A DNA stretch of 64,000 nucleotides, taken from contig CAZULJ010000004.1 in NCBI GenBank assembly GCA_964621195.1, forward strand, positions 16,620 to 80,619. Direction: 5' to 3'. Every line of letters starts with the position of its first letter. Position 1 is the stretch's first letter. Shown piece after piece: positions 4,097-63,008 of this stretch. Made by a program: the position numbers and the translations under genes. The notes beneath the pieces are model-generated. The model worked only from the letters and a program-made list of their open reading frames with translations. It was not told the DNA's origin and searched no databases. Source of the DNA: an uncultured Candidatus Saccharibacteria bacterium. Lineage in GTDB: Bacteria; Patescibacteriota; Dojkabacteria; SC72.

Positions 4097-5218
4097 ATGC
4101 AAAAAGAGAACATACTGTTAATCATAAGTGTTATCCTTTCGATCGCAATACTAGGTTTTTCAATATATATATCCATACCTAAAAACACAACACAAAATGA
4201 AGATATTAACACTGAAGAAGACAGTACACCGGAGCCAGAGGAATTAGTAAACGAAGTGGTAACTGAAGAAGAGCAGGAGATACCCGAAACAACTTTCACC
4301 CAATCGGCATGGATACCCTCCTGGGATTTTAAAAAAGGATTTGAGAGTCTAAAGTTAAGAAAAGAAACAATAACTAGGGTACATCCAGTACTCTACTCTT
4401 TAAACAATAATGGTACACTAATGGATAGAAAACCCTCGGAGAGTACTCTTGCAGAGTTTCTTGCATATACAAAGACAGAAAATATTCTAGTAATACCAAC
4501 GGTAGGTTCATATGACTTTAAGATAATGGAAAGTGTACTAAACTCTGAGGTATATATAGAAAAGAGTGTAAATGAGATTGTTGAGCAGGTAGAGAAGTAT
4601 AACTATGATGGTATCGATATTGATTATGAAAAAATAAAGACTGCAAACAGAGTACAATATCTCTCATTTCTTTCAAAACTATCTACAAAATTAAAAGAGA
4701 AAGGCAAACTCCTTTCTGTTACAGTTTCGGCTAAAACTAGAGACAGTTCAGTAGATACTCTTTATGCACAAGATTGGATAGAGATAAACAAGGTTGCAGA
4801 CAGTGTGAATATAATGACATACGACTATACACTACAAAGCTCAACCATACCTGGACCCATAGGTCCATTAGATTGGATATCCGATGTCATAGAATACTCT
4901 AAAGGGAAAATAAACCCTCAGAAAATATTCCTAGGCATACACCTTTACTCATATCTCTGGAAGGAACAGAAGGCTACTGCACTCACCTACTCTTCGACTA
5001 CAAGTATACTTTCAAATAGTAAAATAGAGAGAAAATATCTCGAAGATTTTGCAGAAGGCTATGCATCGTATACATGTGCAGATGGATCCAAATGTATTCT
5101 CTTCTACCCCACTAAAGAAGGAGTAAAGGAGAGAATTGAAATATCAAGAGAGAATAAGCTTGCTGGTGTAGTATACTGGAGACTAGGAGATGATGGAAAC
5201 ATTTTAGATACAGAATAG
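4097..5218 (+). CDS. Glycoside hydrolase family 18 (chitinase-like) protein with N-terminal membrane anchor
   Basis: N-terminal TM helix. The GH18 catalytic motif is DGIDIDYE (DxxDxDxE). Overall TIM-barrel-like length. Confidence 0.7.
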   Translation: MQKENILLIISVILSIAILGFSIYISIPKNTTQNEDINTEEDSTPEPEELVNEVVTEEEQEIPETTFTQSAWIPSWDFKKGFESLKLRKETITRVHPVLYSLNNNGTLMDRKPSESTLAEFLAYTKTENILVIPTVGSYDFKIMESVLNSEVYIEKSVNEIVEQVEKYNYDGIDIDYEKIKTANRVQYLSFLSKLSTKLKEKGKLLSVTVSAKTRDSSVDTLYAQDWIEINKVADSVNIMTYDYTLQSSTIPGPIGPLDWISDVIEYSKGKINPQKIFLGIHLYSYLWKEQKATALTYSSTTSILSNSKIERKYLEDFAEGYASYTCADGSKCILFYPTKEGVKERIEISRENKLAGVVYWRLGDDGNILDTE

Positions 5219-15097: not shown

Positions 15098-16936
15098 ATG
15101 AACAGGATAATACTAAAGTTGCTTCTCACATTAACGATTCTCTTTACCTGCGTTTATACTTTAAATGCAAGTGATTACGATTTCTCAATACAAAACAACA
15201 CCACAATTCAATACACAACAGGTGATGAATATGTCAGTGTTAAGACTGAGTATATACGTGAAGTAAAAAATAGTGACTTCTACTATTCCACACAGGGAGA
15301 GAAAATCTTTCACATACCAGATCTACCAAAGAGTAAGCAGTATGAGCTTGAATTAGAAAGACAATTTAAGAAAGACTCCTTAAAGGTAGTTGATAACAAT
15401 GGGAAAGCCATTCCCTTTACAGTAGAAGATCTTGAATATGGAAGCGGTATATATGTAAAAGTTCCAAACTATAGACAAACAACGTATGGAAACCCATACA
15501 AGATCTATGTTGAGTATAGGACTCACGATTTAGTAAAAAGAGTTTACGATCACGTAATACTTTTAGCACCAGCATTACATGAGGATACGGAATTCGAACA
15601 GATAGATAGTAATACAGGGACAAAGACCTCTTTTAGCTATGATTTGCATATAGTTACAGACAGTGATATTGCTCCTCTTTCAAATATTTATCCTAAAAGT
15701 TTTCAGGAAGAGACCAAAGATAGTAAAACCACATATACATTCGCATCAAAGGATAGGGTTGGGAACTCTCCTTCCTTAGAATTTGGGACGGACCAGATTT
15801 ACAGATTCGAGCTTAAGTACAACACACCTAAGACAGATAGCTTAATACCAGAGAAATATTCATCAGTATTTAATGCTCTTTCTACAAATATATATGAGAT
15901 ATCACTACCTAGAGAGTTTGCAGAGACAAATCAGAAGGTGAAAATAGAGGAGATATTACCTACTCCTTCTAAGATTTCCCAGGACCTTGAGGGCAATATA
16001 ATTGCAAGGTTTGAGGTCCCCGCAAACAAAAGTAGTGCAATCTTAATTACTGGATATATCTTTGTCCAACAAAGTGAGTATGATCAAAGGCCTTTAATTC
16101 CAAACCTAAGCATAGAGGAGTATGCCGAAATGGTAGAGAAGGATTCTAACCTAAACAAATATCTTACCTCCTCCAAATTCTGGGAATCTGACGATCCATA
16201 TATACAAGATGAGGCAAAAAAACTTGTAGAGAGTAGTAGCTCCTTTTTAAACTTAGTTGAAAATGATTACAGATATATAAATGATAGACTTGAGTACGAT
16301 GAGAGTAAGGCAAACAGTGACAATGAGAGAATAGGAGCAAGGGCAGCACTACAAGGTGGTGGTTCTGTTTGCATGGAGTATGCAGACTCAATGATTGCAA
16401 TACTTAGAGCGCAAGGGATTCCTGCCCGCGCTGCACTTGGATACTCTAATTTAAATGTATTAAGTAAGACAAACGAGGAAGGTAGTACTAGGCATCAATG
16501 GGTACAAGTATGGATACCCGATTACGGGTGGTTAAGCATTGATCCTACATATGAGAGCGAGAACATGCTTATTGGCCAAAATATTGAGAAAGTTCTTTGG
16601 GAGACATTCTACAATGAAGATCTTACAAATATTAAAATTTACTCTGCAGATAGTACTACCAATGAAGATTTTTCAGACTATTCTGTAAAAATATATGCCG
16701 TTTCTGAATCTCCTAATCTCGATACATTACTCGATTACTCGGATGTAAGGTCTGTGGAAGATACAAAAAATACACCAGAAGATACACTTAATACTTTTGT
16801 TAAAACAACAACAATTGGTAAATCGGTAGTTATCTTACTCCCAATATTAACAATACTAGGAATATTAATAGCCCTACTGTCATTAACTACATACATCTTC
16901 AGACAGATTAAAGCTCGTAAAGCTCATCAAGGTTAA
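15098..16936 (+). CDS. Secreted transglutaminase-like cysteine protease domain protein, with signal peptide and C-terminal TM
   Basis: The transglutaminase core is GGGSVCMEYADSMIAILRAQGIPARAALGY...HQWVQVWIPDYGWLSIDPT (Cys-His-Asp). N-terminal signal and C-terminal hydrophobic anchor. Confidence 0.6.
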   Translation: MNRIILKLLLTLTILFTCVYTLNASDYDFSIQNNTTIQYTTGDEYVSVKTEYIREVKNSDFYYSTQGEKIFHIPDLPKSKQYELELERQFKKDSLKVVDNNGKAIPFTVEDLEYGSGIYVKVPNYRQTTYGNPYKIYVEYRTHDLVKRVYDHVILLAPALHEDTEFEQIDSNTGTKTSFSYDLHIVTDSDIAPLSNIYPKSFQEETKDSKTTYTFASKDRVGNSPSLEFGTDQIYRFELKYNTPKTDSLIPEKYSSVFNALSTNIYEISLPREFAETNQKVKIEEILPTPSKISQDLEGNIIARFEVPANKSSAILITGYIFVQQSEYDQRPLIPNLSIEEYAEMVEKDSNLNKYLTSSKFWESDDPYIQDEAKKLVESSSSFLNLVENDYRYINDRLEYDESKANSDNERIGARAALQGGGSVCMEYADSMIAILRAQGIPARAALGYSNLNVLSKTNEEGSTRHQWVQVWIPDYGWLSIDPTYESENMLIGQNIEKVLWETFYNEDLTNIKIYSADSTTNEDFSDYSVKIYAVSESPNLDTLLDYSDVRSVEDTKNTPEDTLNTFVKTTTIGKSVVILLPILTILGILIALLSLTTYIFRQIKARKAHQG

Positions 16937-18416
16937 CAGCCTTTTTACCCTCTTCCATTCTATCTTCAGTAGTAGCATACAAGGTCATAAGGATATCACC
17001 CTTCTTTATCTTCTCTCCAGGCATCTTGTATATATATATTCCTGCATTCTTTATCTTTGGAGTTCCAAGTGCTCTTGCAATCTCTACGATTTCCCTTGTC
17101 CACATATACTTTATTGTTCCCTCCCTATCTGATACAACATCATATGTTAACTCTCCAGCTTTTAAATCTTCAGCTTTTACAACCTGCTTGGCCCCTTGAG
17201 CCTTCGCTATATCCCAGAATTTCTTCAATGCTTTGCCAGTATCAAGTATCTCAAGAGCAATTTTTTTACCCTCACCCTTCTTTGCCTTACCATTGTGTTC
17301 AAATATTTCAGCAGCCATATCTAATACCGTCTCTTCCATACCAAGGGGGCGTTTCTCACTTCGCTCCAATATTCTAAGACAGTCCCTCATCTCAAGTACA
17401 GGTCCAACACCATTACCATCAGGACCTTTCACTACTCTCCTAAAGGTTACACACTTAATACCAAACTTATCAAAGAGTTTCTCAAATTCTCTCTCAAGAA
17501 ATTCTAGGTCATCTGGTCTCTCCAACTTTGTTCCCTTACCATATGGGAGATCTATAAGGACAGAGGTTACTCCCATTGCAATCTTTTTTGCAACGATACT
17601 CACCAAGACCTTTTGGAACTCCTGTATCTTTAAAGATCTTTCAACATTAATAATCTCATCATCTGCTGGAGCTAGATACAAAGATCCTCCCCATATCATA
17701 CAAGCACCCTCTTTCTCTACTACTTCGTACACTCTCTTTTTTGTTAGAGCTACTGGCATTACTGTCTCTAATATATCTGTCGTTCCAGCCGGAGAGGTTA
17801 TTGCTCTTGTGGAACTGTTGGGTATTACCAAACCGCTTGCTGCAAGTATAGGAACAAGTACAGGGGTAATACCTTTTCCAGCCGTACCACCGATAGAGTG
17901 CTTATCTACGACTAGATCCTTGTTCTTTTTTATATATTTGAAATCCAATATCTCTCCAGATTCGGCCATACCTTTGGTCATCCATTTGATTTCGTCGTCG
18001 CTAAAACCTGGATTAAAAAATGTTGAAACAAAAAATGCAACTTCTGTCTCCTTTAACTTTCTTGATCCAATATCTTCCATAATTGCAAGCAATTCCTCCT
18101 GGTTGAGCCTCTGTCCAGAGATCTTCTTCTTTATTGCCTCTAAGGACTTCCCAGGCTCTTGTATATCTACAAGGACCTTTGCACCGTTTGGTATATGATA
18201 TTCTTCAGGAATCTCCTCATACAGACCCACTTCCCCTATAGATACCTCGCTATCAGAAATTATAACTTTTACGTAAAGCTCAATGTCCTTGTAACCCAGT
18301 AAAACTATATCTCCTTCATGTATACCTAGGTCATCAGCATCACTTTGGTGAACAACAATGAAGAGATCTTTACCGGCTCCGAGATCAACTTTCTTACTCT
18401 TAAGATATAGCGCCAT
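16908..18416 (-). CDS. AMP phosphorylase (archaeal-type, thymidine phosphorylase family, DeoA-like)
   Basis: About 500 aa with the extra N-terminal domain. DKHSIGGTAGKGITPVLVPILAASGLVIPNSSTRAITSPAGTTD closely matches the AMPpase/TP active-site block. Confidence 0.75.
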   Translation of the reverse strand: MALYLKSKKVDLGAGKDLFIVVHQSDADDLGIHEGDIVLLGYKDIELYVKVIISDSEVSIGEVGLYEEIPEEYHIPNGAKVLVDIQEPGKSLEAIKKKISGQRLNQEELLAIMEDIGSRKLKETEVAFFVSTFFNPGFSDDEIKWMTKGMAESGEILDFKYIKKNKDLVVDKHSIGGTAGKGITPVLVPILAASGLVIPNSSTRAITSPAGTTDILETVMPVALTKKRVYEVVEKEGACMIWGGSLYLAPADDEIINVERSLKIQEFQKVLVSIVAKKIAMGVTSVLIDLPYGKGTKLERPDDLEFLEREFEKLFDKFGIKCVTFRRVVKGPDGNGVGPVLEMRDCLRILERSEKRPLGMEETVLDMAAEIFEHNGKAKKGEGKKIALEILDTGKALKKFWDIAKAQGAKQVVKAEDLKAGELTYDVVSDREGTIKYMWTREIVEIARALGTPKIKNAGIYIYKMPGEKIKKGDILMTLYATTEDRMEEGKKAVNLDELYEL

Positions 18417-18440
18417 TATAGTTAGTTATTTTAGTTTATT

Positions 18441-19379
18441 TCAAAAAAGCCAAGGGTACTTTGCTTTCACAACCTCAGCAATTTCTTTAGGTTTCAGTAT
18501 ACCAAATTCGGTCAAGATTCCAGTAATCAAAGAGTTATCTACTATCTCGAATGCAGGATTAAAAATCTTAAGCTCTTTAGGAGCGTCTTCCCATAACTCC
18601 CTACTCTCACGAACCTCAATCTTGAGTTCATCTCCCCCTATCTGAGGGTCTACCTTTAAAAGTGGTGAAACAACATACAATGGCTTACTTGCATGGTAAG
18701 CAGACATAGCAATACCCCAACTTCCAATCTTGTTAACACAGTAGCCCTTTGTAGTCAGTTGGTCACAGCCAATAAAGACTGCACCTATCGAAACAGAGCC
18801 TCTACCGATAACAAAAGACTCTGCAGCACTATCTGCAATCAAAGTAGTAGAAATACCTGCCTCCAAAAGACTTTTCGCAGTCTTATGCCCTTGAAAAAGA
18901 GGTCTTGTTTCAGTACAAACCGCATCAAATGAGTCTTTTCCTTGCGCAATCCCTTTTATTACAGAAACTGCCGTAGAAGAATGACAATGAGTTAATATAT
19001 TTTCTAAAAATCTTACCTGAGGTACACAGTAATCAATAATGGCTCTCTTTGTGTCAGCAATAAGGTATAGATAGTTGTCACAGTATTCCTCTAAACGCTG
19101 TTTCATACTATCCAAGGATGGTAAATCAGCATTCTTCGATTCATAAGTATGTTCTACAAAACGGACACCATTTTTAGCTAAAGGCTCATTTGATCTAGCA
19201 TTGGCCAACCTATTACCTACCTCAAGAAACTCTTTGTAAAACAGGCTAGAATCTCTGGTTTCGGACTCCTGTATATATGTCTTCATTCCTTCTAAGGTAG
19301 CAATAGCAACATTGGTTGCACCCTGAATGTTCAACTCTTTTATATCTTTTTCGATATCAAGTATCTTTTTGATCTCCAT
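18441..19379 (-). CDS. Ribose-1,5-bisphosphate isomerase (eIF-2B alpha/beta/delta-like, e2b2/MtnA family)
   Basis: 312 aa. GATNVAIATLEG and a Rossmann-like C-terminal half typical of the eIF2B-related isomerases. Adjacent to AMP phosphorylase. Confidence 0.6.
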   Translation of the reverse strand: MEIKKILDIEKDIKELNIQGATNVAIATLEGMKTYIQESETRDSSLFYKEFLEVGNRLANARSNEPLAKNGVRFVEHTYESKNADLPSLDSMKQRLEEYCDNYLYLIADTKRAIIDYCVPQVRFLENILTHCHSSTAVSVIKGIAQGKDSFDAVCTETRPLFQGHKTAKSLLEAGISTTLIADSAAESFVIGRGSVSIGAVFIGCDQLTTKGYCVNKIGSWGIAMSAYHASKPLYVVSPLLKVDPQIGGDELKIEVRESRELWEDAPKELKIFNPAFEIVDNSLITGILTEFGILKPKEIAEVVKAKYPWLF

Positions 19380-23514: not shown

Positions 23515-23603
23515 TGGCGGAGAGAGTGGGATTCGAACCCACGGTACGGAAACCCGTACAACGGTTTTCAAGACCGTCACATTCGACCACTCTGTCATCT
23601 CTC
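23515..23603 (-). tRNA. tRNA-Ser (anticodon TGA), long variable arm, CCA encoded
   Basis: GGAGAGA-TG-...ACGGT CTTGAAA ACCGT (anticodon TGA). Long variable hairpin. T arm GTGGG TTCGAAT CCCAC. TCTCTCC-G-CCA. Confidence 0.8.
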
Positions 23604-23688
23604 CAAGTAGCTCGGAAATTATATCATGCCTTCTTACTTTTTTCCCATATTTGACTACTTACGAATGATTACAATATCATTTTGATAT

Positions 23689-25587
23689 ATGAACATACAA
23701 AGATACCTTAAGATAATTGCAATATTGATCCCATCAATACTACTCTCCATTCCTGCAATATCCTTTGCTGCAGAGCTCGATTCAACAAACTTTAAAATCG
23801 TGGGAGCAACTACTCAAGGGGGGGGAATTGTAGAATCAACATCCGGCAATTACAGTGCCCTACTAAATGTTGGCTCAATCTCTAGTGACCCAAGAATATA
23901 TTCCACCTTGTATAAAGTAGGATCAAGCCCTGAGACACCATTCTTACCATCCGCCCCTATAATTTCATGTTTTGATGCCACCAGCACAAGCCATAGTGAG
24001 TGTTCAATCGGATCCTCTGGGATATCTTCTGCTGGTATGACTAGCCTTTGCGGAGATGGCGGTTGTTATGACAAAGCTAGATTCGAACTATCAGATTACC
24101 CCTATCACTATCAAACAAATGACTCAAGATTGGTTTCTTACTGGCCCATGGATGAACTTGCGAATGATACCTGCGCTGGAGGACAAGATGTCTGTGACCT
24201 AAAAAGTAGCAATCATGGTACTGATTACGGTGCAGGGATTACGACTGGAAGATTCGCAAGGGGCAGAGAGTTCACAGGAGGTACAGACTATTTAGATATG
24301 GGTAATAACTCTTCGCTAGATCTAACCTCACAAGGAACAATATCTGTTTGGGTAAAATCAGATAGGACATACCCTAGCGATGATGCAACAACTAAATTCA
24401 GGTGGATTCTCTACAAAACAAATGGTGGTGGAGTTGGGGAACAAAGTTATTGGTTTGACTGGTATGGAACAAATACTTCAAGAACCTTTAGAGCAAGAAT
24501 CTCTAATGCTGCAGGCGCATCAAATGGTTTTTCAATCTCTAACTATGACATGGGAACAGAGTGGAAACACTTTGTATTAACTTTCGATGGCTCTCTAGTT
24601 AAGTTATTTATAAATGGCACCCTATACGGGAGTGTAACACAAACAATTAGTGCTCAAGTAATAACAGCTCCGGTAAAAATTGGTGGTGCGTATGGATGGG
24701 ACGGATTAATTGACGAGGTAATGATATACAATCAAGCGTTAAGTGACAGTGAAGTAGAAGCTCTCTATCAAGAAACCGCATTAGCTGTAAATCCTGCAGA
24801 CACACTCTACTCTGTTATGATATCTACAGATAACTTTGTATCTGATATTCGATATATCGACTCTTCCACATTTATGCCCGAAAGTATTTCAACCCACAAT
24901 CTTTCCGACTTTATGCCAGAGGATAACTGGGAAGCAGAATTGTTAAACCTAAAGGGATTAGAACCAAATACCACCTACTACCTAAGAGCTGTTGCCCTCC
25001 AAGGATCTTTTACGCAAACAGAACCTGGTCCTGTTCGATCTACTACTACGGGTATCCCAGAAGTATTCTTCGATATAGATATTGCAGATGAATCTGGGTA
25101 TACAGCAGAAAGCTCTCCCCCACACTCTATACAATTTACTGGAGCATATGAACTGATCGGAGGGTCTGCCGCAATTACTGCACAAAATAGAATTTGGTTA
25201 GACGGAAATACCAACTCAAGTGGAGGATACGCCATCATTATGAATGGAACAAATGGTGGTCTATATAGCCCCACCACATTACAGACTATAACCTCGGCGA
25301 CAGCAGATCTTAATGGTGTAAGTTCTGGATTTGGATTACAAAGTGAATATATAGATTACAGTACCGATGGACCAACCCTTGGGTTTATATCCTCAACTAC
25401 AGACTATAGCGGAACAGGTAACGAGGTCGGAATTATTTCTACAACAGCCAACAAAATATATGACGCAGATGGCCCAATTATTGATGGTAGAATGGCATTA
25501 AAAGTGATTGCAAAACCAGGTACCTCATATACTGCTGCCACTGACTATTCAGAGACAATATTCCTAATCTTCGTTCCTAGATATTAA
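23689..25587 (+). CDS. Secreted protein with LamG/concanavalin-A-like lectin domain
   Basis: Signal peptide. YWPMDE...ISVWVK...WKHFVLTFDGSLVKLFINGTLYG...IDEVMIYNQALSDSEVEALY matches the Laminin_G_3 pattern. Confidence 0.6.
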   Translation: MNIQRYLKIIAILIPSILLSIPAISFAAELDSTNFKIVGATTQGGGIVESTSGNYSALLNVGSISSDPRIYSTLYKVGSSPETPFLPSAPIISCFDATSTSHSECSIGSSGISSAGMTSLCGDGGCYDKARFELSDYPYHYQTNDSRLVSYWPMDELANDTCAGGQDVCDLKSSNHGTDYGAGITTGRFARGREFTGGTDYLDMGNNSSLDLTSQGTISVWVKSDRTYPSDDATTKFRWILYKTNGGGVGEQSYWFDWYGTNTSRTFRARISNAAGASNGFSISNYDMGTEWKHFVLTFDGSLVKLFINGTLYGSVTQTISAQVITAPVKIGGAYGWDGLIDEVMIYNQALSDSEVEALYQETALAVNPADTLYSVMISTDNFVSDIRYIDSSTFMPESISTHNLSDFMPEDNWEAELLNLKGLEPNTTYYLRAVALQGSFTQTEPGPVRSTTTGIPEVFFDIDIADESGYTAESSPPHSIQFTGAYELIGGSAAITAQNRIWLDGNTNSSGGYAIIMNGTNGGLYSPTTLQTITSATADLNGVSSGFGLQSEYIDYSTDGPTLGFISSTTDYSGTGNEVGIISTTANKIYDADGPIIDGRMALKVIAKPGTSYTAATDYSETIFLIFVPRY

Positions 25588-25682
25588 GTCAAAATATCTA
25601 TTGACATGGTTGATTGGTATATGTAATCTGTAATCATAATACTAGTTTGTTTTTTTTACTCTAATTTTTAACTCTGCCCAAT

Positions 25683-26804
25683 GTGAGAAGTCTAGGAACT
25701 CTCTTAAGGATAGCGATACCAACATTTTTGATAGTTGGGTTTACCTCATTTTTCATATTCTTTTCTGCACAAGCAGCCTCCCTTACTGCCGTATATATGT
25801 ACTACAGTAGAATTCAAGCTGGACTTAACGGTACTGGTGGGCAAGCAGTACAATTTGTACTAGCAGTTGCACCAGCACAAAATATGGGATCTGGTGGTAC
25901 AATCACAATTGAGTATCCAGATGCAGCCGATGGAACTTGGTGTAGAGGTGCTGGAGCATTAGGAATTTCTGCAGTTGCATCCTCAGAGGCAGACTTGGCA
26001 ATAACATACTGGGATATTGACTCTGCTCTTCCAAACAGTGGTACTGCACTTGCAGCTGCATGTACACAAGGTTCTGGAACAAGCTCGGTAGATACAATAA
26101 CTATTACAAATGTCGGAGCATTAACAGCAGGTACAACATACGGTGTTCAGATTTCTAGCAGCACTGGAGTATTGGGAACCAATGGTACTGCTGGTCAGCA
26201 TGAAATAACTGTAACTGTTGAGAGTGGTGCAACTATTGACTCAAAGACCTTCAAGATTTCATTAGTATCTAATGACTCTGTAGTCGTTAGTGCTACAGTA
26301 TCTGACGCCCCAAGTGTAAACTGTTCAATAAGTACGAATACTGTAAACTTAGGAACCCTTTACCCTGGTGGTGCATATGCAATAGGAACTCATACTATCT
26401 CTACCTCTGCAACTTCTGGATATTACTGGGCTGCATACGGCACGGGAGATGGTTCAACAGATGCTGGTCTTTACAAATCGACCGCCACTACATACTTAAT
26501 AGCATCGGGGACAACTGCAACCTTAGATCTTACAGTCGCTGGTAGTGAAGGTTTCGGAATGACCGTATCAGATCCAGATAGTACTGGTGGCGCCGTAGTA
26601 TCTACAAACTTTGTTGATACAACAGCTGGAACCTTTGGTACACTCGATAGGTTGTATAGTGGAGCAAAGATGATTCTTTCACAAAATGGTGCACAGGGTA
26701 CATCTGAAAATGCTACAATTACATACGGTGCAAGAGCAAGCGCATCAGCACCTGCTGGTTCATACCAAGAAACTGTAACCTTCATTTGTGGTGGTTACTA
26801 CTAG
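25683..26804 (+). CDS. Secreted Gly/Thr/Ser/Ala-rich protein of unknown function
   Basis: N-terminal hydrophobic signal/anchor. Low-complexity T/G/S-rich composition. Part of a same-strand cluster of exported proteins. Confidence 0.4.
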   Translation: MRSLGTLLRIAIPTFLIVGFTSFFIFFSAQAASLTAVYMYYSRIQAGLNGTGGQAVQFVLAVAPAQNMGSGGTITIEYPDAADGTWCRGAGALGISAVASSEADLAITYWDIDSALPNSGTALAAACTQGSGTSSVDTITITNVGALTAGTTYGVQISSSTGVLGTNGTAGQHEITVTVESGATIDSKTFKISLVSNDSVVVSATVSDAPSVNCSISTNTVNLGTLYPGGAYAIGTHTISTSATSGYYWAAYGTGDGSTDAGLYKSTATTYLIASGTTATLDLTVAGSEGFGMTVSDPDSTGGAVVSTNFVDTTAGTFGTLDRLYSGAKMILSQNGAQGTSENATITYGARASASAPAGSYQETVTFICGGYY

Positions 26805-26814
26805 TACTTAGATA

Positions 26815-27777
26815 ATGATATTGAAAATACTTAAGGAATATAACAGAATATTTTTACTGCCCACAATTTTACTCTGTTTAAGTGTGATACCAACATTCGC
26901 ACAGAGTAGTCTTTCAATTGGCGTCTCCCCTACTTCCAAAGTATTAAAAGTTCAACCAGGAGATACATATACTGATGAGGTTGTCTTCTGGAATCTTTCA
27001 CAAGATGCAGACACCTATCAAATCTATGTAAGAGGCTTTAGACAGATAGAGAATCAACCAGGAACAGCAATAATTCTAACCGATGAAGAGGAAGCAAAAT
27101 CTTTGTACTCCGCATCAAAGTGGGTAACACTTGAGAAAGATACTTTAACTCTTGAGCCTAACAAGAATACAAAGCTTAGATATACAATTAATGTTCCTTT
27201 AGATGTTACAGAGGGTGAATACAACGCTCAAATATTTCTAATATCTGAATCTGCAGGAGGAACACAAGGTTCCGTTACATTTGCAAACTTAGCAGCTGGC
27301 ATGCCCCTACTACTTCAGATAGGTGACGAATTTGTAGAGAATGCTGAGCTTCTAAGGTTCACAAGTGACAAGAAGACTTACGAGAAGATAAATATAGATT
27401 TTCTAACACAAATAAAGAATTTAGGAGATACACATATAACACCCACAGGTGAGATTGTAGTAGAAAATATATTTAAACAAGAAGTGGCGAGAATACCATT
27501 CAACAGAAATAGACAAAGCTTACTAAGAGATAATCTAGGCAACTATATAGACAACTGGAGCCAACCAGGATATCTCTCCCCTAACAATGCCCTCGCAATT
27601 GGACCAATGAAGGCTACACTTCTAGTGACATATAGAAGTATACAGCCAGGATTTGCTACTCTCTCTTCTGAGATCTCTTTCTGGATAATTCCTTGGAAGA
27701 TTCTTTTGGCTATTCTCTTACCTATCCTTACTGCTATAATTGTAGTAATAAGTAAGAAAAGACTAAAAAGAAGATAA
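26815..27777 (+). CDS. Cell-surface protein with signal peptide and C-terminal TM anchor plus basic tail. Possibly DUF916-like.
   Basis: Signal peptide. SIGVSPTSKVLKVQPGDTYTDEVVFWNLSQD resembles the N-terminal pattern of WxL-locus DUF916 proteins. The C-terminus is ILLPILTAIIVVISKKRLKRR. Confidence 0.4.
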   Translation: MILKILKEYNRIFLLPTILLCLSVIPTFAQSSLSIGVSPTSKVLKVQPGDTYTDEVVFWNLSQDADTYQIYVRGFRQIENQPGTAIILTDEEEAKSLYSASKWVTLEKDTLTLEPNKNTKLRYTINVPLDVTEGEYNAQIFLISESAGGTQGSVTFANLAAGMPLLLQIGDEFVENAELLRFTSDKKTYEKINIDFLTQIKNLGDTHITPTGEIVVENIFKQEVARIPFNRNRQSLLRDNLGNYIDNWSQPGYLSPNNALAIGPMKATLLVTYRSIQPGFATLSSEISFWIIPWKILLAILLPILTAIIVVISKKRLKRR

Positions 27778-28658
27778 TGAAATTCCTTAAAATATTCTTT
27801 ATATCAATATATCTTTTGATATCCTTCGGTAAAAATACCCTTTATGCAAACACCCTATCGCCTTCTATCAATGAGATAACAGTATCTCAAGGACAAAGAA
27901 CATACTCCACTGTAACTTTTCAAAATGATGGGGAAAAAGACACAGAAGTATTAATAAAGATATATTCATACAATCCTCAAACAGATGAAATATCAGAAAA
28001 TAGTGAGGATCTATTTCTTAAGGCTGACACAGATACATTTTTGATAGAGGCAGGACAGAAGAAAAGCATACAGTACGAAATAGCTCCGATATCAAATATG
28101 GAGTTAGGAACATACTTTAACCTACTCACACTCTTGCCCGAAGCAGACCCAGGAAACGTTTCAATAGCACAGGGGATCTCTCAACTAGTTGTATTAAATC
28201 TAGTATCTGCAGAAGACGAAGTATTGGGTATTACAACGAATGACTTCTCACCCAAAATCGAACTTGTAAGTAAAGGAATACCATATATACTTCCTTTAAA
28301 GATTAGATATATATATGTTAACCAATCAAATTTTGTTTTAACACCCTCTGGTAGGATAGAGGTATTTAACAAGAGGGGTGATTACATGCCAAAATATATA
28401 TATGTAAATCAAGAAGGCGAGAAATTATACCCAGGTGAGCAACTAGAAAAAACCGTTGAGATACATAACTGGCACCTATCAGATCTATTCTCAGACAGAT
28501 ATGTACTGGGAAACTTTACAAATGGTTTGGATAGTAATCCGAAACTTACAGAAATATCCGTACCTTCATATACAATTGAAATATTTGCAGCGCTTGTTGT
28601 ACTAATAGTAGGATATCTCTTTATCAAATCTCTTAGAGAAGACAAAAAGGGATCCTAG
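27777..28658 (+). CDS. Cell-surface protein with signal peptide and C-terminal TM anchor. Paralog-like of the upstream gene.
   Basis: SINEITVSQGQRTYSTVTFQNDGEKDTEVLIKIY has the same pattern as the upstream protein. C-terminal anchor IFAALVVLIVGYLFIKSLREDKK. Its start overlaps the upstream stop. Confidence 0.4.
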   Translation: MKFLKIFFISIYLLISFGKNTLYANTLSPSINEITVSQGQRTYSTVTFQNDGEKDTEVLIKIYSYNPQTDEISENSEDLFLKADTDTFLIEAGQKKSIQYEIAPISNMELGTYFNLLTLLPEADPGNVSIAQGISQLVVLNLVSAEDEVLGITTNDFSPKIELVSKGIPYILPLKIRYIYVNQSNFVLTPSGRIEVFNKRGDYMPKYIYVNQEGEKLYPGEQLEKTVEIHNWHLSDLFSDRYVLGNFTNGLDSNPKLTEISVPSYTIEIFAALVVLIVGYLFIKSLREDKKGS

Positions 28659-39014: not shown

Positions 39015-40565
39015 TTACCTGTTTGCTACTTTCCTTTCAAATTTCTCTCTGTATTTGAAGTCTTCCTTTCGTACAAAGGTACTGTTTGGAAGATTGTAGA
39101 CAACTACACCAAATACTACTAATACAAACCCAGCAAGTATTCTAGAAGCGGTAGTATCAAAGAGACCTGTCTGTGGTACCTCAGGTTCTGCGATTTCACA
39201 ATCCGCTGTAATATTTGCTGTTGCTGTTATGGCATCAGAATCAACGGGTGTTAATGTTACTGTATTTGCATAAGTGTCAAAGTTATCCTTATCTATCACG
39301 AGCTTATAGTTTAGCACTTTCGATGCTCCTGCGTTTATTGTAAGAGGAGAAGATGAATAATCCCACAAGATTTTACCATCTGCGTATGAGCCTGGAGATG
39401 TAATCGTCGATAACTGTACAAATGAGCTTATAACTTTACTATCAAGAGTATCTTCTACCTTCGTTATTTGCCCTGCACCATCACCCGTGTTCCTGATAGT
39501 TATTGTATATAAAAGTTCTGATTTAGGATCTTCTGTATTCTCATCAATACACTGTTCTACTACAGCCTTACTTATATCCCAATCTGGGTTAGTTTCCTCT
39601 TCCAAAAGAGTGAAGCTAGTACTTACAGCACAAGCAGTACTGGTAGCACCCTTTTTATCTTCCCAACTCAAAGTGAGTGTATGAGAACCTGTAGATAGTT
39701 TACTTCCAGTTTTACTTAGATCTCCCGTAATCAATGATTCCGTAGCCTGTTCAGTAACTTTGAAACATTTTGTAGCACTTGGCGAAGTACACTCTGGAAT
39801 GGCAACACCATCAAGCTTTACAACTATTTTTGACTTATTAATTCCATCTTTATCTTTTGCCTTTACACCAAAAGATATATTGGTTTCATAGGCAATACTA
39901 CCAGTAGGTTTGGTAACCCATTCTCCACCATCGCAAACATTTGCAGGAGTACAGTCATCCTCTGCATAGGGGTTCTTACATTCATCTTTTTTACCGTAGC
40001 ATGGATGACCAGGTTTGTATTCTTCGATAGTGACCGATCCATTGTTGACATTACACATAGCAATATACGCTTTACACGTACCGGAAGCTTTTGCATCGAC
40101 TTGCCCCTGTGTACCACTGGGGAATGTACAGTTTACGCCACAACCATTGCTCCAAGAGTCACAAACACACTTAACAACAGGAGTATCGTCACAAGCTTTT
40201 GTGCCAAATTCTCCTTTACGACCTGCATCTTCACAAGCATCTGCACAGGAGCCTGAATTTGTTGTCACCCAATTTCCATCACAACATTTACATCTCTTTG
40301 CATCACCACAAGCGACAGTACCACACAGCTCTCCATTCTCGTAACAATCCATAAATCCGCTATTGTTTTTACACCATTCGCTATCGTAACAAGCCGCAGT
40401 AGCTGCTGCAGAACATCCAGTACCACCACCACCCGCATCACTATCTGTAGGGTCTAATTGACTCTCTTGATTAACTCTCCATATCAAGAAACCAAGAAGT
40501 GCAGAAAGCAAAACTATTGAAATTGCAAATATGATCTTACTAGTATTTGTTAATCTAACAGCCAT
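39015..40565 (-). CDS. Cys-rich surface protein with DUF11-like repeat domain and C-terminal VPQTG plus hydrophobic anchor
   Basis: N-terminal TM/signal. About 35 Cys in residues 50-260. LLYTITIRNTGDGAGQITKVEDTLDSKV is DUF11-like. The C-terminus is EPEVPQTG followed by a hydrophobic segment and a charged tail. Confidence 0.45.
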   Translation of the reverse strand: MAVRLTNTSKIIFAISIVLLSALLGFLIWRVNQESQLDPTDSDAGGGGTGCSAAATAACYDSEWCKNNSGFMDCYENGELCGTVACGDAKRCKCCDGNWVTTNSGSCADACEDAGRKGEFGTKACDDTPVVKCVCDSWSNGCGVNCTFPSGTQGQVDAKASGTCKAYIAMCNVNNGSVTIEEYKPGHPCYGKKDECKNPYAEDDCTPANVCDGGEWVTKPTGSIAYETNISFGVKAKDKDGINKSKIVVKLDGVAIPECTSPSATKCFKVTEQATESLITGDLSKTGSKLSTGSHTLTLSWEDKKGATSTACAVSTSFTLLEEETNPDWDISKAVVEQCIDENTEDPKSELLYTITIRNTGDGAGQITKVEDTLDSKVISSFVQLSTITSPGSYADGKILWDYSSSPLTINAGASKVLNYKLVIDKDNFDTYANTVTLTPVDSDAITATANITADCEIAEPEVPQTGLFDTTASRILAGFVLVVFGVVVYNLPNSTFVRKEDFKYREKFERKVANR

Positions 40566-58167: not shown

Positions 58168-58833
58168 ATGTTTGATACAACAAGCTTAACACAGTGGGTT
58201 TTAGATCATGGAGTCCCCCCTACTGCATTAGAGCTACTAATGGCAATTTCTGTATTAGCGACTGTGGTAAGTATCGCAAGATATGTCATAGGTTCAAAAA
58301 CATATGGCATATATGCACCAATACTTCTCGCAATCGCATATTCATATACAGGGTTAAAATACGGACTTTCAGTAACACTACTAGTCATTCTTACCTCTTT
58401 AATCTCCTACAGCATACTTAAAAAGATTAGAATGCACTACTTAACTAGAATCGCTACCAACTACACGATACTCTCAATGTTACTAATCCTCTTCTTTGTA
58501 TTAATAGATCGATTTGGACTAGGATTGGACAATATGCATAATATTCCCCCTCTCGCATTCATATCAATAGCTGCACTCTCTGACTTCTTTATCAAACAGT
58601 ATGTAAAGAAATCACTTGAAGGATCTTTACTCACACTCTTTGGAACAATAACTGTTGCAATAGTTGGTTGGTTTGTAATATCTAGAGAAATAATCTCGGA
58701 ATATTTGATCCTAAATCTATGGATACTACCCGTACTAACAATCGTAAATATCCTACTAGGACAATTTACAGGGTTAAGAATCAGAGACTATTTCAGATTT
58801 AGACTAAGCAACAAAGATGACTCTAGCAATTAA
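58168..58833 (+). CDS. Seven-TM integral membrane protein, first gene of the ATP-grasp operon
   Basis: 221 aa. I count seven hydrophobic helices of about 20 aa each. Cytoplasmic basic tail RIRDYFRFRLSNK. The stop overlaps the next gene. Confidence 0.55.
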   Translation: MFDTTSLTQWVLDHGVPPTALELLMAISVLATVVSIARYVIGSKTYGIYAPILLAIAYSYTGLKYGLSVTLLVILTSLISYSILKKIRMHYLTRIATNYTILSMLLILFFVLIDRFGLGLDNMHNIPPLAFISIAALSDFFIKQYVKKSLEGSLLTLFGTITVAIVGWFVISREIISEYLILNLWILPVLTIVNILLGQFTGLRIRDYFRFRLSNKDDSSN

Positions 58834-60295
58834 CAATAGGTATAGCCAAATATTAGGCTTAAACCGAAGGAATCAAGAGTATGTGAGACCATACAATCCT
58901 CCTTCTGCCAAAGCTATTGCTGACAATAAAATACTAACAAAGAGAGTCCTAAAGAAAGAGTTAATACAAACACCGGAGGTCTACAAACTTGTAAGAACCA
59001 AAAAGCAATTACAATTTTTAGATTGGGATAGCTTACCAAAAAGCTTTGTTATAAAGCCCAACAAAGGAACAGGTGGAAATGGAATAATCGTATTCTACGG
59101 AAAGAAAAAAGGACAAGATGCATGGATAAGACCAAATGGATCAGTTATGACAAAGAGAGATATAATTCTTCATATAGAAAATATACTAGAGGGTAGATTC
59201 TCGATGGGTTCTCGTAACGACATTGCTATCATAGAGGAAAGAATTAAGACAGATTCCCTACTAAAGCAGTACTCATACAAAGGCGTTCCAGATATTAGAA
59301 TAATCTGCTTCAACGAGGTTCCCGTAATGGCTATGCTAAGATTACCAACTAAAAGATCTAATGGTACTGCAAATCTGCACTCGGGCGCAATATGTACAGG
59401 TATAGACTTAGAATCAGGTATTACGACCTACTCTATGCATATGAAGGCCTCTGCCTTTAGAACAGATTCCTACAAGCTTGTAGACTCAACCTTAGATCTT
59501 CAAGAGAATAAACCTCTAAGTGGTATTCAAATACCGTACTGGAACGAGATGTTAGAAATCGCACTTAAATGCCAGAAAGCAAGTAAACTCGGATACCTTG
59601 GTGTAGACATCGCAATAGATGCAGAAAAGGGCCCTGTTGTATTTGAAATAAATGCTAGACCAGGCCTCGGAATACAAGTAGCGAACCAAGCTGGTCTTAG
59701 ATGGAGGTTAGAGAAAGTAAAGGACCTGAATATAAAGAGTATAAAACATGGGATTAGAGTCGCAAAGAATCTCTTCGGAGGAGAAATTGAGGAAAATATT
59801 GAAGCTATCAGTGGTAGAAAGGTACTCAACATAGTTGAAAAAGTTACCCTCTTTAACAAAGGGACCGAGATAAGCAAGATTAAGAAGGCAAAGAAAATGC
59901 AAAAGGAAATAGTAAAGGCCTTCATGGACACCGGGATACTGACATCCAGAATCTCTTCCATACTTGCAAACAGGATAGGTTTTCTAAAAGCTGGGAAAGA
60001 TTTTGAGTCTTTAGATGTACCAAAAAGATTTGGAAGTTTCAAAGAAGCACAGGACTACATGGATAAGTATGAAAAGGATATCTGTACACGATACCCTGAT
60101 ATAAAAAGACTTGCTAAGATCTTAGAAGATGGAGAAATAAAAATAAGACCAGTATTTGAGATACCCATTAAAATATCTGACTCTATAAAAATAACAGAGT
60201 TTGTATCTACAGATTCCAAAGAAAATCTCTACCCAGTTGTCATAGGTAGGGCTGAACTATCCGGTTTCCTTATCGATACAAGTAATACATTCTAA
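58817..60295 (+). CDS. ATP-grasp amidoligase, RimK-related / sugar-transfer-associated ATP-grasp-like, with about 170-aa C-terminal extension
   Basis: FVIKPNKGTGGNGIIVF (ATP-grasp B-loop region)...LGYLGVDIAIDAEKGPVVFEINARPGL (C-terminal Mg/ATP motif). 492 aa. Confidence 0.6.
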   Translation: MTLAINNRYSQILGLNRRNQEYVRPYNPPSAKAIADNKILTKRVLKKELIQTPEVYKLVRTKKQLQFLDWDSLPKSFVIKPNKGTGGNGIIVFYGKKKGQDAWIRPNGSVMTKRDIILHIENILEGRFSMGSRNDIAIIEERIKTDSLLKQYSYKGVPDIRIICFNEVPVMAMLRLPTKRSNGTANLHSGAICTGIDLESGITTYSMHMKASAFRTDSYKLVDSTLDLQENKPLSGIQIPYWNEMLEIALKCQKASKLGYLGVDIAIDAEKGPVVFEINARPGLGIQVANQAGLRWRLEKVKDLNIKSIKHGIRVAKNLFGGEIEENIEAISGRKVLNIVEKVTLFNKGTEISKIKKAKKMQKEIVKAFMDTGILTSRISSILANRIGFLKAGKDFESLDVPKRFGSFKEAQDYMDKYEKDICTRYPDIKRLAKILEDGEIKIRPVFEIPIKISDSIKITEFVSTDSKENLYPVVIGRAELSGFLIDTSNTF

Positions 60296-60314
60296 AATAT
60301 TTCTCAAAGAAACT

Positions 60315-61292
60315 ATGAAAACATACGAAGAATATTTACAAGAAGCAGGTAATGTACATCTAGCCTACTACGTTGAAGCTGCAGATACGCTGGGCATAAA
60401 GTATGAGATCGTAAAAAGATCCCTTCTAGCAAAATTTTCAAACGATACGAAACATTGGTTCATAATTAATACTGCTACACCTCTTACCAATACAACAAGT
60501 ACTACAATTGCTAAGAGAAAAAACCTAACAAACGAGATCCTGTACAAGGCTGGGATACCAGTACCAAGGCAAGTTGTTTTAAGAAATAAAAATGAAGCTA
60601 TAAAGTTTTTTGAAGAGTACAAAACCATAGTCATCAAACCCTCTCAACAATTGGGAGGGAATGGTGTGACCTTACTACCAAAAGATAAAGGACAGGTAAT
60701 AAAGGCATTTAAAAGTGCAGATAAGTCTTCAAAGGCAAAAGATGAGAACAGAGTAATTGGAGAAGAATTCATAGAAGGAGAAAACTACAGATTCCTAGTA
60801 GTAGGAGATTCTGTTGTAGGCATTGTGAGAAGAAAGGCAGCTTTTGTGGTTGGAGATGGAAATAACAGTATTAAAAAATTAATAGAGGAGAAAAACAGAG
60901 AGAGAAAGAGTAACCTACTTAAGCCAATCCCTATAGATACTGAAGTTAAATTAAGATTAGAGAATCTTAAAATAAATCTCAATACCGTGCCAAGTGAAGG
61001 CGAAGAAGTTATACTTAGATACAACTGTAACCTAAGTACTGGTGGTACAACACAGGAGTGTTCATCCCAAGTACATGAATACTACAAAGAGATTGCCGTC
61101 AGTGCTGTGAAAGCAATTGGAACAGTATTTGGGGGAGTCGATATAATTACTCCAGATATTACACAACCTGCAAAATGCGGAGTAAATGAAATAAACTACA
61201 ATCCAGGTCTAAGACTACACTACAAAGTAGATGAAGGAGAGGCAGTAAAGGTTGCAATACCAATAATGGAATATATATCAAAAAATATTTAA
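60315..61292 (+). CDS. ATP-grasp ligase, cyanophycin-synthetase-like
   Basis: IVIKPSQQLGGNGV...ENYRFLVVGDSVVGIVRRKAAFVVGDGNNSIKKLIEEKN...NLSTGGT...GVDIITPDI...VNEINYNPGL parallels the CphA ATP-grasp domain. Confidence 0.6.
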   Translation: MKTYEEYLQEAGNVHLAYYVEAADTLGIKYEIVKRSLLAKFSNDTKHWFIINTATPLTNTTSTTIAKRKNLTNEILYKAGIPVPRQVVLRNKNEAIKFFEEYKTIVIKPSQQLGGNGVTLLPKDKGQVIKAFKSADKSSKAKDENRVIGEEFIEGENYRFLVVGDSVVGIVRRKAAFVVGDGNNSIKKLIEEKNRERKSNLLKPIPIDTEVKLRLENLKINLNTVPSEGEEVILRYNCNLSTGGTTQECSSQVHEYYKEIAVSAVKAIGTVFGGVDIITPDITQPAKCGVNEINYNPGLRLHYKVDEGEAVKVAIPIMEYISKNI

Positions 61293-61309
61293 TCTTTTTC
61301 TAAAACAAA

Positions 61310-63007: not shown

Positions 63008-63008
63008 C

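Follow-up and report, generated by a model that had tools for sequence, protein, structure and literature searches.

What structure, if any, do four adjacent genes for exported proteins specify in an uncultured, ultra-small Candidatus Dojkabacteria (WS6) bacterium of the CPR? The window, i.e., the whole 64,000-nucleotide stretch of DNA analysed here, does contain the four-gene cluster first seen by an initial annotation, with open reading frames P1 to P4 all running in the same direction on the + strand between positions 23689 and 28658 (Table 1). P1 and P2 are 95 bp apart, P2 and P3 10 bp apart, and P3 and P4 overlap by 1 bp. The initial annotation offered a surface complex, an adhesin locus or a pilus-like locus as readings, of which the exported gene cluster itself stands and the pilus-like option agrees best with our reading, the Pam pilus being a much closer known system than the WxL complexes then invoked. 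We consider it probable that the cluster represents a compact, divergent Pam-type pilus operon, and a Pam pilus rather than a WxL complex provides the best fit to the observations below. Known from cryo-EM structures and models in a preprint of 2026, the Pam pilus is CPR-specific, and in Candidatus Mycosynbacter amalyticus (Saccharimonadia) it consists of the pilins PamA, PamB, and PamE, the tip protein PamT, the chaperones PamC and PamD, and the terminator PamR (bioRxiv 10.64898/2026.03.03.709456).

Table 1 Position and character of the features discussed (nucleotide coordinates refer to the window, residues to the respective protein)
Feature	Nucleotides	Strand	Residues	Remarks
P5	22259..23443	-		394 aa; LPKTG sortase-substrate-like surface protein; upstream of P1, opposite strand
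tRNA-Ser gene	23515-23604	-		between P5 and P1
Sigma-70-like promoter, best match	23651..23680	+		TTGACT-18-TATCAT, 10/12; 9 nt upstream of P1 start codon
P1	23689..25587	+		632 aa; open reading frame; putative tip adhesin; signal peptide aa 1-27 (heuristic)
P1 conserved N-terminal module		+	28-~135	ELDSTNFKIVG..., four invariant Cys
P1 LamG / concanavalin-A-like lectin insertion	24094..24789	+	~136-367	Pfam match aa 197-356
P1 FN3-like segment		+	~368-454	
P1 C-terminal domain	25051..25587	+	~455-632	pilin-type candidate; end ...DYSETIFLIFVPRY
P2	25683..26804	+		373 aa; Pam-type major pilin candidate; signal peptide aa 1-31 (heuristic)
P2 N-domain	25788-26267	+	~36-195	nine-strand beta-sandwich (AF2 model)
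P2 linker / putative donor strand	26268-26321	+	~196-213	NDSVVVSATVS; AF2 low confidence at 204-210
P2 C-domain	26322-26801	+	214-373	end AGSYQETVTFICGGYY
P3	26815..27777	+		320 aa; putative pilin chaperone (PamC/PamD class); two Ig-like domains, TM helix; DUF916/WxLIP-like, PapD-like chaperone fold
P3 domain 1		+	~35-144	plus strand 162-169
P3 disordered loop		+	148-159	
P3 domain 2		+	~177-291	
P3 signal peptide and membrane anchor		+	294-319 (TM helix)	signal peptide (heuristic); KKRLKRR tail after the helix
P4	27777..28658	+		293 aa; fast-evolving distant P3 paralogue; signal peptide, beta domains, TM helix aa ~259-289, basic tail

Export of all four proteins was part of the initial annotation, and each of P1-P4, like the neighbouring P5, does begin with basic residues and a hydrophobic core that lead up to a candidate cleavage site of the AxA type. 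Signal peptides were called with our own heuristic, which placed the candidate cleavages of P1 to P5, in order, at SFA|AE, AQA|AS, TFA|QS, LYA|NT, and LYA|DN.

The skewed composition of P2, already remarked upon, is genuine (T, A, G, and S make up 52% of residues), and its AF2 monomer model (mean pLDDT 83) places nine N-domain strands within residues 36-195. Together with the signal peptide, the linker, the C-domain, and the paired cysteines (positions 87, 127, 214, and 369 are invariant across the family), the model displays the build of a Pam pilin. The curated Pam pilin model NF058581 (CPR_Pam_pilin_C) detects P2 with 24.8 bits (E = 1.9e-5), below its cutoff of 55 and over model positions 55-148 only, and matches just 3 of 29 close P2-family members at E < 0.01. 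A P2-family profile searched exhaustively against a library of 1.84 billion proteins retrieved only 169 representative clusters, yet it extended full-length to P0324 (E = 6.6e-29, profile positions 12-373) and P0331 (E = 3.3e-24), both of which pass the NF058581 cutoff (143.1 and 68.7 bits, respectively). Among distant members of the family, 31 of 48 match the curated pilin model and 7 match PamT. Conversely, a bridging profile built from six distant matches, two of them above the NF058581 cutoff, recovered P2 with 170.8 bits across positions 25-357 of 359, and the alignments revealed motifs common to the P2 family and the distant pilins (FPDAxDxxWCRTAG, TTKYGV, DQVxVTATV, and AGSYxxTxT). By profile comparison and predicted structure, P2 is thus a full-length homologue of Pam pilins with their two-domain build. 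A point against the Pam reading is linker conservation: the donated linker is reported to be among the most conserved regions of Pam pilins (bioRxiv 10.64898/2026.03.03.709456), but that of the P2 family (0.71-0.78) does not stand out from the remaining sequence (0.83-0.91 in parts of the C-domain). The restriction of the Pam system to CPR fits, since all named homologues belong to Candidatus Dojkabacteria / WS6 apart from a weak match (25% identity) on a contig labelled Gammaproteobacteria (L063).

In Firmicutes, WxL/Csc clusters encode a WxLIP protein (DUF916, DUF3324, and a TM segment) alongside WxL proteins of small and large size (PMC10599100), and WxLIP structures are available as PDB 9i25 and 9i1y. 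The top Foldseek match of the AF2 monomer model of P3 (pLDDT 80.7) in the PDB is the Enterococcus faecium WxLIP 9i25_C (E = 1.7e-12, TM-score 0.42-0.50), 9i1y being matched too, followed by RbmA (6e-10) and the chaperone-usher chaperones CfaA (2e-9), CsuC (2e-8), and DraB (3e-7); all of these have Ig-like sandwiches, a common fold, and no TM-score exceeds 0.5. The modelled fold of P3 is therefore WxLIP- and PapD-chaperone-like, the latter at the fold level only, as no PapD_N, PapD_C, or Fimbrial matches were obtained in the Pfam searches. P3 itself scores 20.4 bits against PF06030 (DUF916; cutoff 27.3), and sub-threshold matches to Pfam WxLIP_PGBD/DUF916 recur in 28 of 32 P3-family members (E < 0.01, best E = 1.1e-5), with DUF916 also matched in a further family set (15/19). 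No NCBIfam model recognises P3-type proteins. The C-terminal TM helix and basic tail described initially for both P3 and P4 are borne out, with at least two K/R residues in 32/32 P3-family and 25/25 P4-family members, and the anchored architecture as a whole is conserved in 32/32, 25/25, and 19/19 proteins. PamC and PamD are likewise membrane-anchored, PapD/FimC-like chaperones with a C-terminal TM helix (bioRxiv 10.64898/2026.03.03.709456), and it is in architecture that we liken P3 and P4 to PamC, PamD, and PamR (WP_260763277.1, WP_260763284.1, and WP_260763282.1). Beyond Dojkabacteria, almost all of 29 other Pam-type loci, which come from metagenomes and more distant lineages and have different flanks, have a P3-family gene next after that of the pilin, and the pilin-adjacent proteins of these lineages align with the P3 family at an hhalign probability of 100% (E = 9e-43).

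The strongest alternative is a non-filamentous, WxL/Csc-like surface complex, in which WxLIP-like P3 and P4 would hold P1 and P2 at the cell surface by supplying what is missing from the C-terminal beta-sandwich of each, with no polymerisation, and P5 would act as a wall-anchored member like CscD in lactobacilli. The top structural match, the recurrent DUF916 matches, the shared build (signal peptide, two Ig domains, TM helix), and the pairing of a larger with a smaller partner, probably with a common C-terminal domain, next to an LPXTG protein all speak for it. The resemblance to DUF916 noted initially thus holds up, but membership in a WxL system does not, because P1 and P2 lack a WxL domain or dual W-x-L motif: neither matches Pfam WxL at E ≤ 1, P2 has no W-x-L at all, and the only one in P1 lies inside the LamG domain. 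The DUF3324 component that had also been suggested found no match in P3, P4, or the family searches. P5 is encoded on the opposite strand, past a tRNA gene, and the pilins to which P2 is homologous over its entire length appear as filaments in cryo-EM. We therefore regard a complex of this type as unlikely.

P4 was initially described as a paralog of P3, a relationship that is apparent between profiles (hhalign 94.8%, E = 5e-8, 211 columns) but not in pairwise comparison (BLASTP E = 0.65). Identity within the P4 family ranges from 31 to 54%. P4 scores 49.2 bits against a profile of the pilin-adjacent proteins from other lineages and shows no matches to DUF916/WxLIP. In a Pam-type pilus, P4 would be a second chaperone or, alternatively, a terminator and membrane anchor comparable to PamR.

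The "LamG lectin" label given to P1 is correct for the domain (Pfam Laminin_G_3, E = 4.7e-21, residues 197-356) but not for the core component, since LamG is a lineage-specific insertion in a conserved protein of ~400 aa. Most P1 orthologues are of this shorter length, with conserved N- and C-terminal parts that flank the insertion; the LamG region is missing as a single clean gap from a 399-aa orthologue (L008), and long forms are limited to the window and four other loci (L041, L054, L057, and L062). The part of P1 most conserved across genomes is the C-terminal domain, with tblastn covering about the last 41% of the protein. This domain aligns with the P2 C-domain over 134 columns, collinearly to the last residue (29% identity, E = 5e-4, hhalign probability 31%), compared to E = 0.12-0.21 for control pairings, which is suggestive only, and the two probably share the same strand-acceptor fold. 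At the other end, NCBIfam PamT (NF058579) matches P1 residues 8-83 at 19.8 bits, below its cutoff of 240, and PamT matches occur in 5 of 32 P1 orthologues (best E = 9.3e-6). Based on the likeness of its C-domain to P2, a weakly PamT-like N-terminus, a variable or inserted lectin, and the parallel with a LamG-bearing archaeal fimbrial subunit, TafC (see below), P1 is likely the tip adhesin.

The order P1-P2-P3-P4 is kept in 63 species-level genomes wherever the contig is long enough, so that the cluster is far beyond chance. Since synteny in Dojkabacteria spans the whole chromosomal region, including its housekeeping flanks, gene order within the class is nevertheless weak evidence of functional coupling. 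This shared synteny, along with P4 and P5 having no family assignment, would be compatible with functionally unrelated secreted proteins (for instance, envelope proteins together with a glycan-binding LamG protein) that merely sit in a syntenic core-genome region. We judge this very unlikely given that a pilin gene and a P3-family gene adjoin in nearly all of the 29 distant-lineage loci, amid different flanks, that the genes of the cluster are tightly spaced or overlapping, and that a common C-domain is probable for P1 and P2. As sigma-70-like sites in the region do not exceed the number expected from shuffled sequence, the best match may be an operon promoter but does not count as evidence for one.

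P5, the divergently encoded LPKTG protein also noted initially, is real: it exceeds the TIGR01167 cutoff narrowly (16.9 bits vs. 15.9), matches no Pfam family, and ends in LPKTG, a TM segment, and RKRRK. The gene next beyond it encodes a CCA-adding enzyme, and in 31 of the 32 loci having this upstream gene P5 occupies the same position (26-46% identity), with the sorting motif kept in 17 of 20 orthologues. P5 is thus a neighbour of conserved position and a possible member of the system at most. That a sortase joins P5 and the cluster proteins into a Gram-positive-type pilus or a wall-anchored adhesin set is the least credible reading, and we all but dismiss it, because P1-P4 lack LPXTG, P1 (...VPRY) and P2 (...CGGYY) end without a TM segment, the anchors of P3 and P4 are plain TM helices, and no open reading frame >120 aa in the window contains the TLxTC sortase motif.

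A possible sequence of events for a Pam-type pilus can be drawn up by analogy with the Pam pilus, which is the basis for inferring both that a filament assembles and what each protein does in it. All four proteins would be exported by Sec, and P3, perhaps along with P4, would remain tethered to the membrane, where it may donate a beta-strand, probably the loop-strand at residues ~148-169, to cap the incomplete Ig-like C-domain of freshly exported P2 and P1. With its acceptor-type C-domain and an N-terminal part that varies and faces outward, P1 would initiate the fibre and come to lie at its tip as an adhesin, bearing the LamG lectin in the window genome. P2 subunits would then join at the base by donor-strand exchange, the linker strand NDSVVVSATVS of each inserting into the C-domain groove of the preceding subunit, to yield a thin, linear filament without usher, ATPase, or sortase. 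P4 could serve as a second chaperone, or as a PamR-like terminator that holds the finished fibre on the membrane. By the same analogy, the fibre would probably serve to attach the bacterium to a host cell, a partner cell, or a glycan surface, in keeping with the episymbiotic way of life in the CPR.

Compared to known systems, the cluster shares with the Pam pilus a CPR host, an operon without usher, ATPase, or sortase, and, encoded beside the pilin, exported proteins of two domains that end in a TM helix. P2 and Pam pilins have in common the signal peptide, the nine-strand N-domain, the linker strand, the Ig-like C-domain, paired cysteines, a ...AGSYxxTxT... C-terminus, and full-length profile homology via proteins that pass the curated model. 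The cluster differs in belonging to another class, Dojkabacteria, which is unnamed in the preprint (bioRxiv 10.64898/2026.03.03.709456), and in sequences that fall below the curated Pam cutoffs. It has one pilin gene where the Pam pilus has three, a multi-domain presumed tip protein of 400-632 aa (with LamG here) where PamT is a single-domain protein of 241 aa, no recognisable separate PamR, a role that P4 may fill, and a conserved LPXTG-protein neighbour. A further point against the Pam reading is the neighbourhood: pam operons are reported to lie near ATP synthase genes, but no ATP synthase, CorB, or MFS genes flank the cluster. Pam pilins have been seen as filaments by cryo-EM, whereas a filament of the Dojkabacteria proteins is a prediction.

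With WxL/Csc systems, the cluster shares the fold match of P3 to WxLIP, the weak but consistent DUF916 matches, the build, a larger and a smaller partner, an LPXTG neighbour, and possibly a mechanism, as a strand of the anchored protein is in both cases predicted to complete the beta-sandwich of its partner. It differs in that the partners are devoid of WxL domains and motifs, in the absence of any DUF3324 match, in having Pam-type pilins that would be expected to polymerise, and in a CPR rather than a Firmicute host. Haloarchaeal tat-fimbriae (tafi; TafA/TafE/TafC/TafF) carry the LamG-bearing minor subunit TafC at the tip, while termination and anchoring of the fibre fall to a membrane protein (PMC11821415). 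They resemble the pilus proposed here as usher-less fibres with modelled donor-strand assembly on a single-membrane cell. The NCBIfam TafC model matches the LamG region of P1 (E = 1.1e-14), a likeness confined to that domain (54 bits vs. a cutoff of 410). Tafi subunits are instead single-domain and exported by Tat, and no chaperone-like genes are described for tafi. Finally, chaperone-usher pili (Fim/Pap, CFA/I, and Csu) rely on an outer membrane and an usher, neither of which applies to the cluster: no usher-like gene occurs among its four genes, and the flanking genes are housekeeping genes. Its chaperone-like proteins, in turn, have a membrane anchor. Pam pilins donate the inter-domain linker as a strand and not an N-terminal extension as in chaperone-usher pili, and the Pam filament is linear, whereas that of chaperone-usher pili is coiled.

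The four open reading frames proposed by the initial annotation were recovered at exactly the predicted coordinates, all on the forward strand, and form a tight cluster in which P1 and P2 are separated by 95 bp, P2 and P3 by 10 bp, and P3 and P4 overlap by 1 bp. Signal peptides and C-terminal helices were called with our own heuristic rather than SignalP. On this basis, the N-termini of P1-P4 and of the divergent neighbor P5 are signal-peptide-like with AxA-type sites, in line with the export originally suggested, and a hydrophobic helix followed by a basic tail was found in P3 and P4, not in P1 or P2, as expected from the proposed C-terminal anchoring. The LPKTG neighbor is also real, although P5 barely passes TIGR01167. 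Scans for promoters and terminators gave no excess over shuffled expectation. The 245-bp gap between P5 and P1 contains a tRNA-Ser gene; in 27 of 44 related loci, the P1 orthologue likewise has a tRNA-Ser shortly upstream.

Position of the surface-protein cluster, its neighbors, and other loci in the window
Feature	Position	Strand	Length (aa)	Description
P1	23689-25587	+	632	LamG protein
P2	25683-26804	+	373	Thr/Ala/Gly/Ser-rich protein
P3	26815-27777	+	320	Membrane-anchored protein
P4	27777-28658	+	293	Membrane-anchored protein
P5	22259-23443	-		LPKTG + TM + RKRRK end; TIGR01167
tRNA-Ser(tga)	23515-23604	-		
Transglutaminase-like protein	15098-16936	+	612	
Phosphorylase/IF-2B-family pair	16908-19379	-		AMP/pyrimidine-nucleoside-phosphorylase-like gene adjoining IF-2B-family (ribose-1,5-bisphosphate isomerase-like) gene
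DUF11-domain protein	39015-40565	-	516	
ATP-grasp cluster	58168-63962	+		7TM_transglut membrane protein, then four consecutive ATP-grasp genes (ATPgrasp_ST, then RimK-like)

All homologues of P2, P3, and P4 came from Candidatus Dojkabacteria / candidate division WS6 (CPR), and none of them was annotated. Across the 63 loci detected in a scan of one genome per species, the P1-P2-P3-P4 order was kept wherever the contig extended far enough, between conserved housekeeping flanks (beta-CASP RNase, CCA-adding enzyme, then P5 on one side; RNase HII, CysRS, and RecR on the other). Since both gene order and flanks are kept, the cluster is part of the Dojkabacteria core genome and not an island, and synteny within the class is therefore weak evidence of functional coupling. 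Many loci labeled "uncultured Candidatus Saccharibacteria bacterium" (L002, L004, L007, and others) share synteny, at 60-80% identity, with Dojkabacteria genomes, and this label is probably a placeholder. One weak P3-like match (L063, 25% identity) lies on a contig labeled Gammaproteobacteria. Elsewhere in the window, the DUF11-domain and transglutaminase-like proteins may be further envelope or surface proteins, the ATP-grasp genes possibly form a cluster of peptide or amino-acid ligases, and the phosphorylase and IF-2B-family genes make up a pair typical of an archaeal/CPR nucleotide salvage route.

P2, noted earlier as a G/T-rich protein and indeed 52% Thr, Ala, Gly, and Ser, provided the clearest link to a known system. 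Its C-terminus matches the NCBIfam model NF058581 ("Pam pilus system pilin subunit") at 24.8 bits, below the cutoff of 55. Two filaments have been solved from the CPR parasite Ca. Mycosynbacter amalyticus, and Pam pilins consist of an N-domain folded as a nine-strand beta-sandwich, one linker strand, and an Ig-like C-domain, which is truncated and takes up the linker of the neighboring subunit (bioRxiv 10.64898/2026.03.03.709456). In the AF2 model of P2 (pLDDT 83), residues 36-195 form exactly nine strands, the linker (204-210) is of low confidence, and residues 214-373 make up a beta C-domain. The P2-family profile matched only 169 representative clusters in an exhaustive search of 1.84 billion proteins, and among 48 distant full-length matches, 31 match NF058581 and 7 match PamT, the Pam tip protein. 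Two of these bridging pilins, P0324 (E = 6.6e-29 to the P2 profile) and P0331 (E = 3.3e-24), pass the NF058581 cutoff at 143 and 68.7 bits, respectively. Conversely, P2 scores 170.8 bits against a profile built from bridging pilins only, with the match spanning the whole profile, and common motifs were seen by eye in the alignments. Homology of P2 to Pam pilins can be regarded as established by these sequence comparisons, P2 falling below the curated cutoff because its sequence is too divergent.

A Foldseek search with the whole P2 model yielded nothing beyond tandem-Ig proteins of a generic kind, namely integrin legs and MSCRAMM adhesins, at TM ~0.2, and was uninformative owing to the two-domain geometry. 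Searches of PDB sequences with P2 alone, the P2 profile, or the P3 profile gave no meaningful match, and no Pam pilus entry was among the best 50-60 PDB matches listed. Contrary to expectation, the linker did not stand out as the best-conserved segment across the P2 family. Several P2-profile matches are very large (P0294, 2159 aa; P0381, 2595 aa; P0402, P0403, P0412, and P0421), some with a full P2-like module and others with 8-28 tandem repeats matching the last N-domain strands (profile positions ~155-205).

In the AF2 model of P3 (pLDDT 80.7), a signal peptide precedes two beta-sandwich domains, and a TM helix lies at the C-terminus. The best structural matches of P3 in the PDB were the E. 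faecium WxLIP structures 9i25_C (E = 1.7e-12) and 9i1y, followed by RbmA and then the chaperone-usher chaperones CfaA, CsuC, and DraB. Weak matches to DUF916 (WxLIP_PGBD) were detected in 28 of 32 P3-family members. The proposal that P3 and P4 are paralogs holds at the level of distant profile similarity (94.8% probability, E = 5e-8) but not by pairwise BLASTP, which found no similarity between P3 and P4 and none between P1 and P2; both relationships are visible by profile comparison only. Across 29 metagenomic loci retrieved with bridging pilins, the pilin-adjacent gene almost always encoded a full-length P3-family member. These pilin-adjacent proteins are homologous to P3 (hhalign E = 9e-43). 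Each begins with a hydrophobic segment and ends in a TM helix plus basic tail, and 15 of the 19 show some match to DUF916. Compared by description alone, the P3-family architecture matches that of the chaperones PamC and PamD, reported as PapD/FimC-like with a C-terminal TM helix (bioRxiv 10.64898/2026.03.03.709456). A search of the P3-like neighbors of Pam pilins against NCBIfam for PamC, PamD, and PamR models gave no match. P4 may be a second chaperone or a PamR-like terminator.

In lineages outside the Dojkabacteria set (L064-L085, e.g., L082:9945-10958), anchored proteins adjoining the pilin gene carry a conserved juxtamembrane cytoplasmic motif, (K/R)(K/R)YN(R/Q)WI(I/V)KKA, directly after the TM helix. 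This motif, which P3 and P4 of the window lack, might serve to dock a partner in the cytoplasm. At L074, two P3-like genes in tandem are followed downstream by a P1-like gene in opposite orientation (4551-5138, - strand), so the arrangement of the operon varies beyond the core set of Dojkabacteria.

The LamG domain reported in P1 was confirmed (Laminin_G_3, E = 4.7e-21). P1 orthologues are mostly ~400 aa, and LamG (residues ~136-367) is a clean insertion found only in the window and four other loci. The conserved N-terminal module (ELDSTNYKIVG...) has four invariant Cys and a weak PamT-like match, and the C-terminal domain aligns end-to-end with the P2 C-domain (E = 5e-4, probability 31%; controls, E = 0.12-0.21), which makes it a probable pilin-type domain. 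FimH and PapG are two-domain tip adhesins with a variable N-terminal part and a pilin-type C-domain, and P1, with its variable lectin-bearing N-terminal part and probable pilin C-domain, follows the same logic. Haloarchaeal tat-fimbriae offer a further parallel, as their tip carries TafC, a LamG protein (PMC11821415). By analogy, we infer that P1 is the tip protein. Short proteins made of a pilin C-domain only are encoded upstream of the pilin gene at L085:1437-2234 (46-bit PamT match), L087:9031-9828, L079:3-497, and L080:1-738; these lineages have a simple PamT-like tip, in contrast to the larger P1 of Dojkabacteria.

From the homologies and architectures observed, we infer an order of assembly and polymerization in which P1-P4 would all be exported by Sec, after which membrane-tethered P3 and/or P4 would capture the incomplete C-domains of P1 and P2 through a donated strand. 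The candidate capturing strand is the P3 disordered loop 148-159 with strand 162-169; the analogous element of WxLIP is a hairpin, for which completion of the WxL sandwich has been predicted (PMC10599100). P1 would then start the fiber, each P2 linker would be inserted into the preceding C-domain during elongation, and the fiber would be held at the membrane, perhaps via P4.

Other surface systems were less compatible with the cluster. A sortase pilus is unlikely, as the pilins lack LPXTG and the suggested sortase check, carried out within the window, found no sortase motif; the absence of an usher in the cluster speaks against a chaperone-usher pilus. The WxL/Csc complex initially invoked is also unlikely, as the WxL domains that define it are absent from the cluster; the likeness to DUF916 is nevertheless real at the fold level and, weakly, in sequence. 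Published pam operons have an ATP synthase neighborhood (bioRxiv 10.64898/2026.03.03.709456), which was sought at the cluster's locus and not found; forward-strand genes at 54-64 kb of the window encode NusG, ribosomal proteins, and the ATP-grasp cluster. We read the locus as a compact operon of the Pam type, from one more class of CPR, composed of one pilin, a probable multi-domain tip protein sometimes with a lectin, and two anchored DUF916-like helpers.

Pam pili were first described in 2026 from one cultivated Saccharimonadia parasite and are thought to make first host contact (bioRxiv 10.64898/2026.03.03.709456). If our reading is right, the system reaches another CPR class, Dojkabacteria/WS6, where it was missed by current curated models with every component annotated as "hypothetical", and exists there in a minimal version whose four genes encode a tip, a pilin, and two anchored helpers, attractive for reconstitution and multimer modeling. 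Host or substrate specificity may reside in the tip protein, which is variable and carries a LamG lectin in some genomes only.

It is conceivable, if doubtful, that a single ancient "anchored-chaperone" system of monoderms branched into the Pam pili of CPR and the WxL/Csc complexes of Firmicutes. The common core would be a Sec-exported, membrane-tethered, DUF916-type two-Ig protein completing the C-terminal incomplete beta-sandwich of its secreted partners. Pam "chaperones" would then be WxLIP homologues, and either WxL complexes may be short donor-strand assemblies or Pam pili their polymerizing descendants. The Dojkabacteria operon combines a small and a large partner (P2 and P1), with a probable C-domain in common, with two DUF916-like proteins and has an LPXTG neighbor; it would represent an intermediate-looking form exposing this link. 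The Pam preprint mentions neither Dojkabacteria, WxL, DUF916, nor LamG (bioRxiv 10.64898/2026.03.03.709456), nor does it draw the link, seen in structure and weakly in sequence, from the anchored proteins that accompany pilins to enterococcal/lactobacillal WxLIP (DUF916). This link suggests a testable mechanism common to two separately studied systems, namely strand complementation by a membrane-tethered chaperone.
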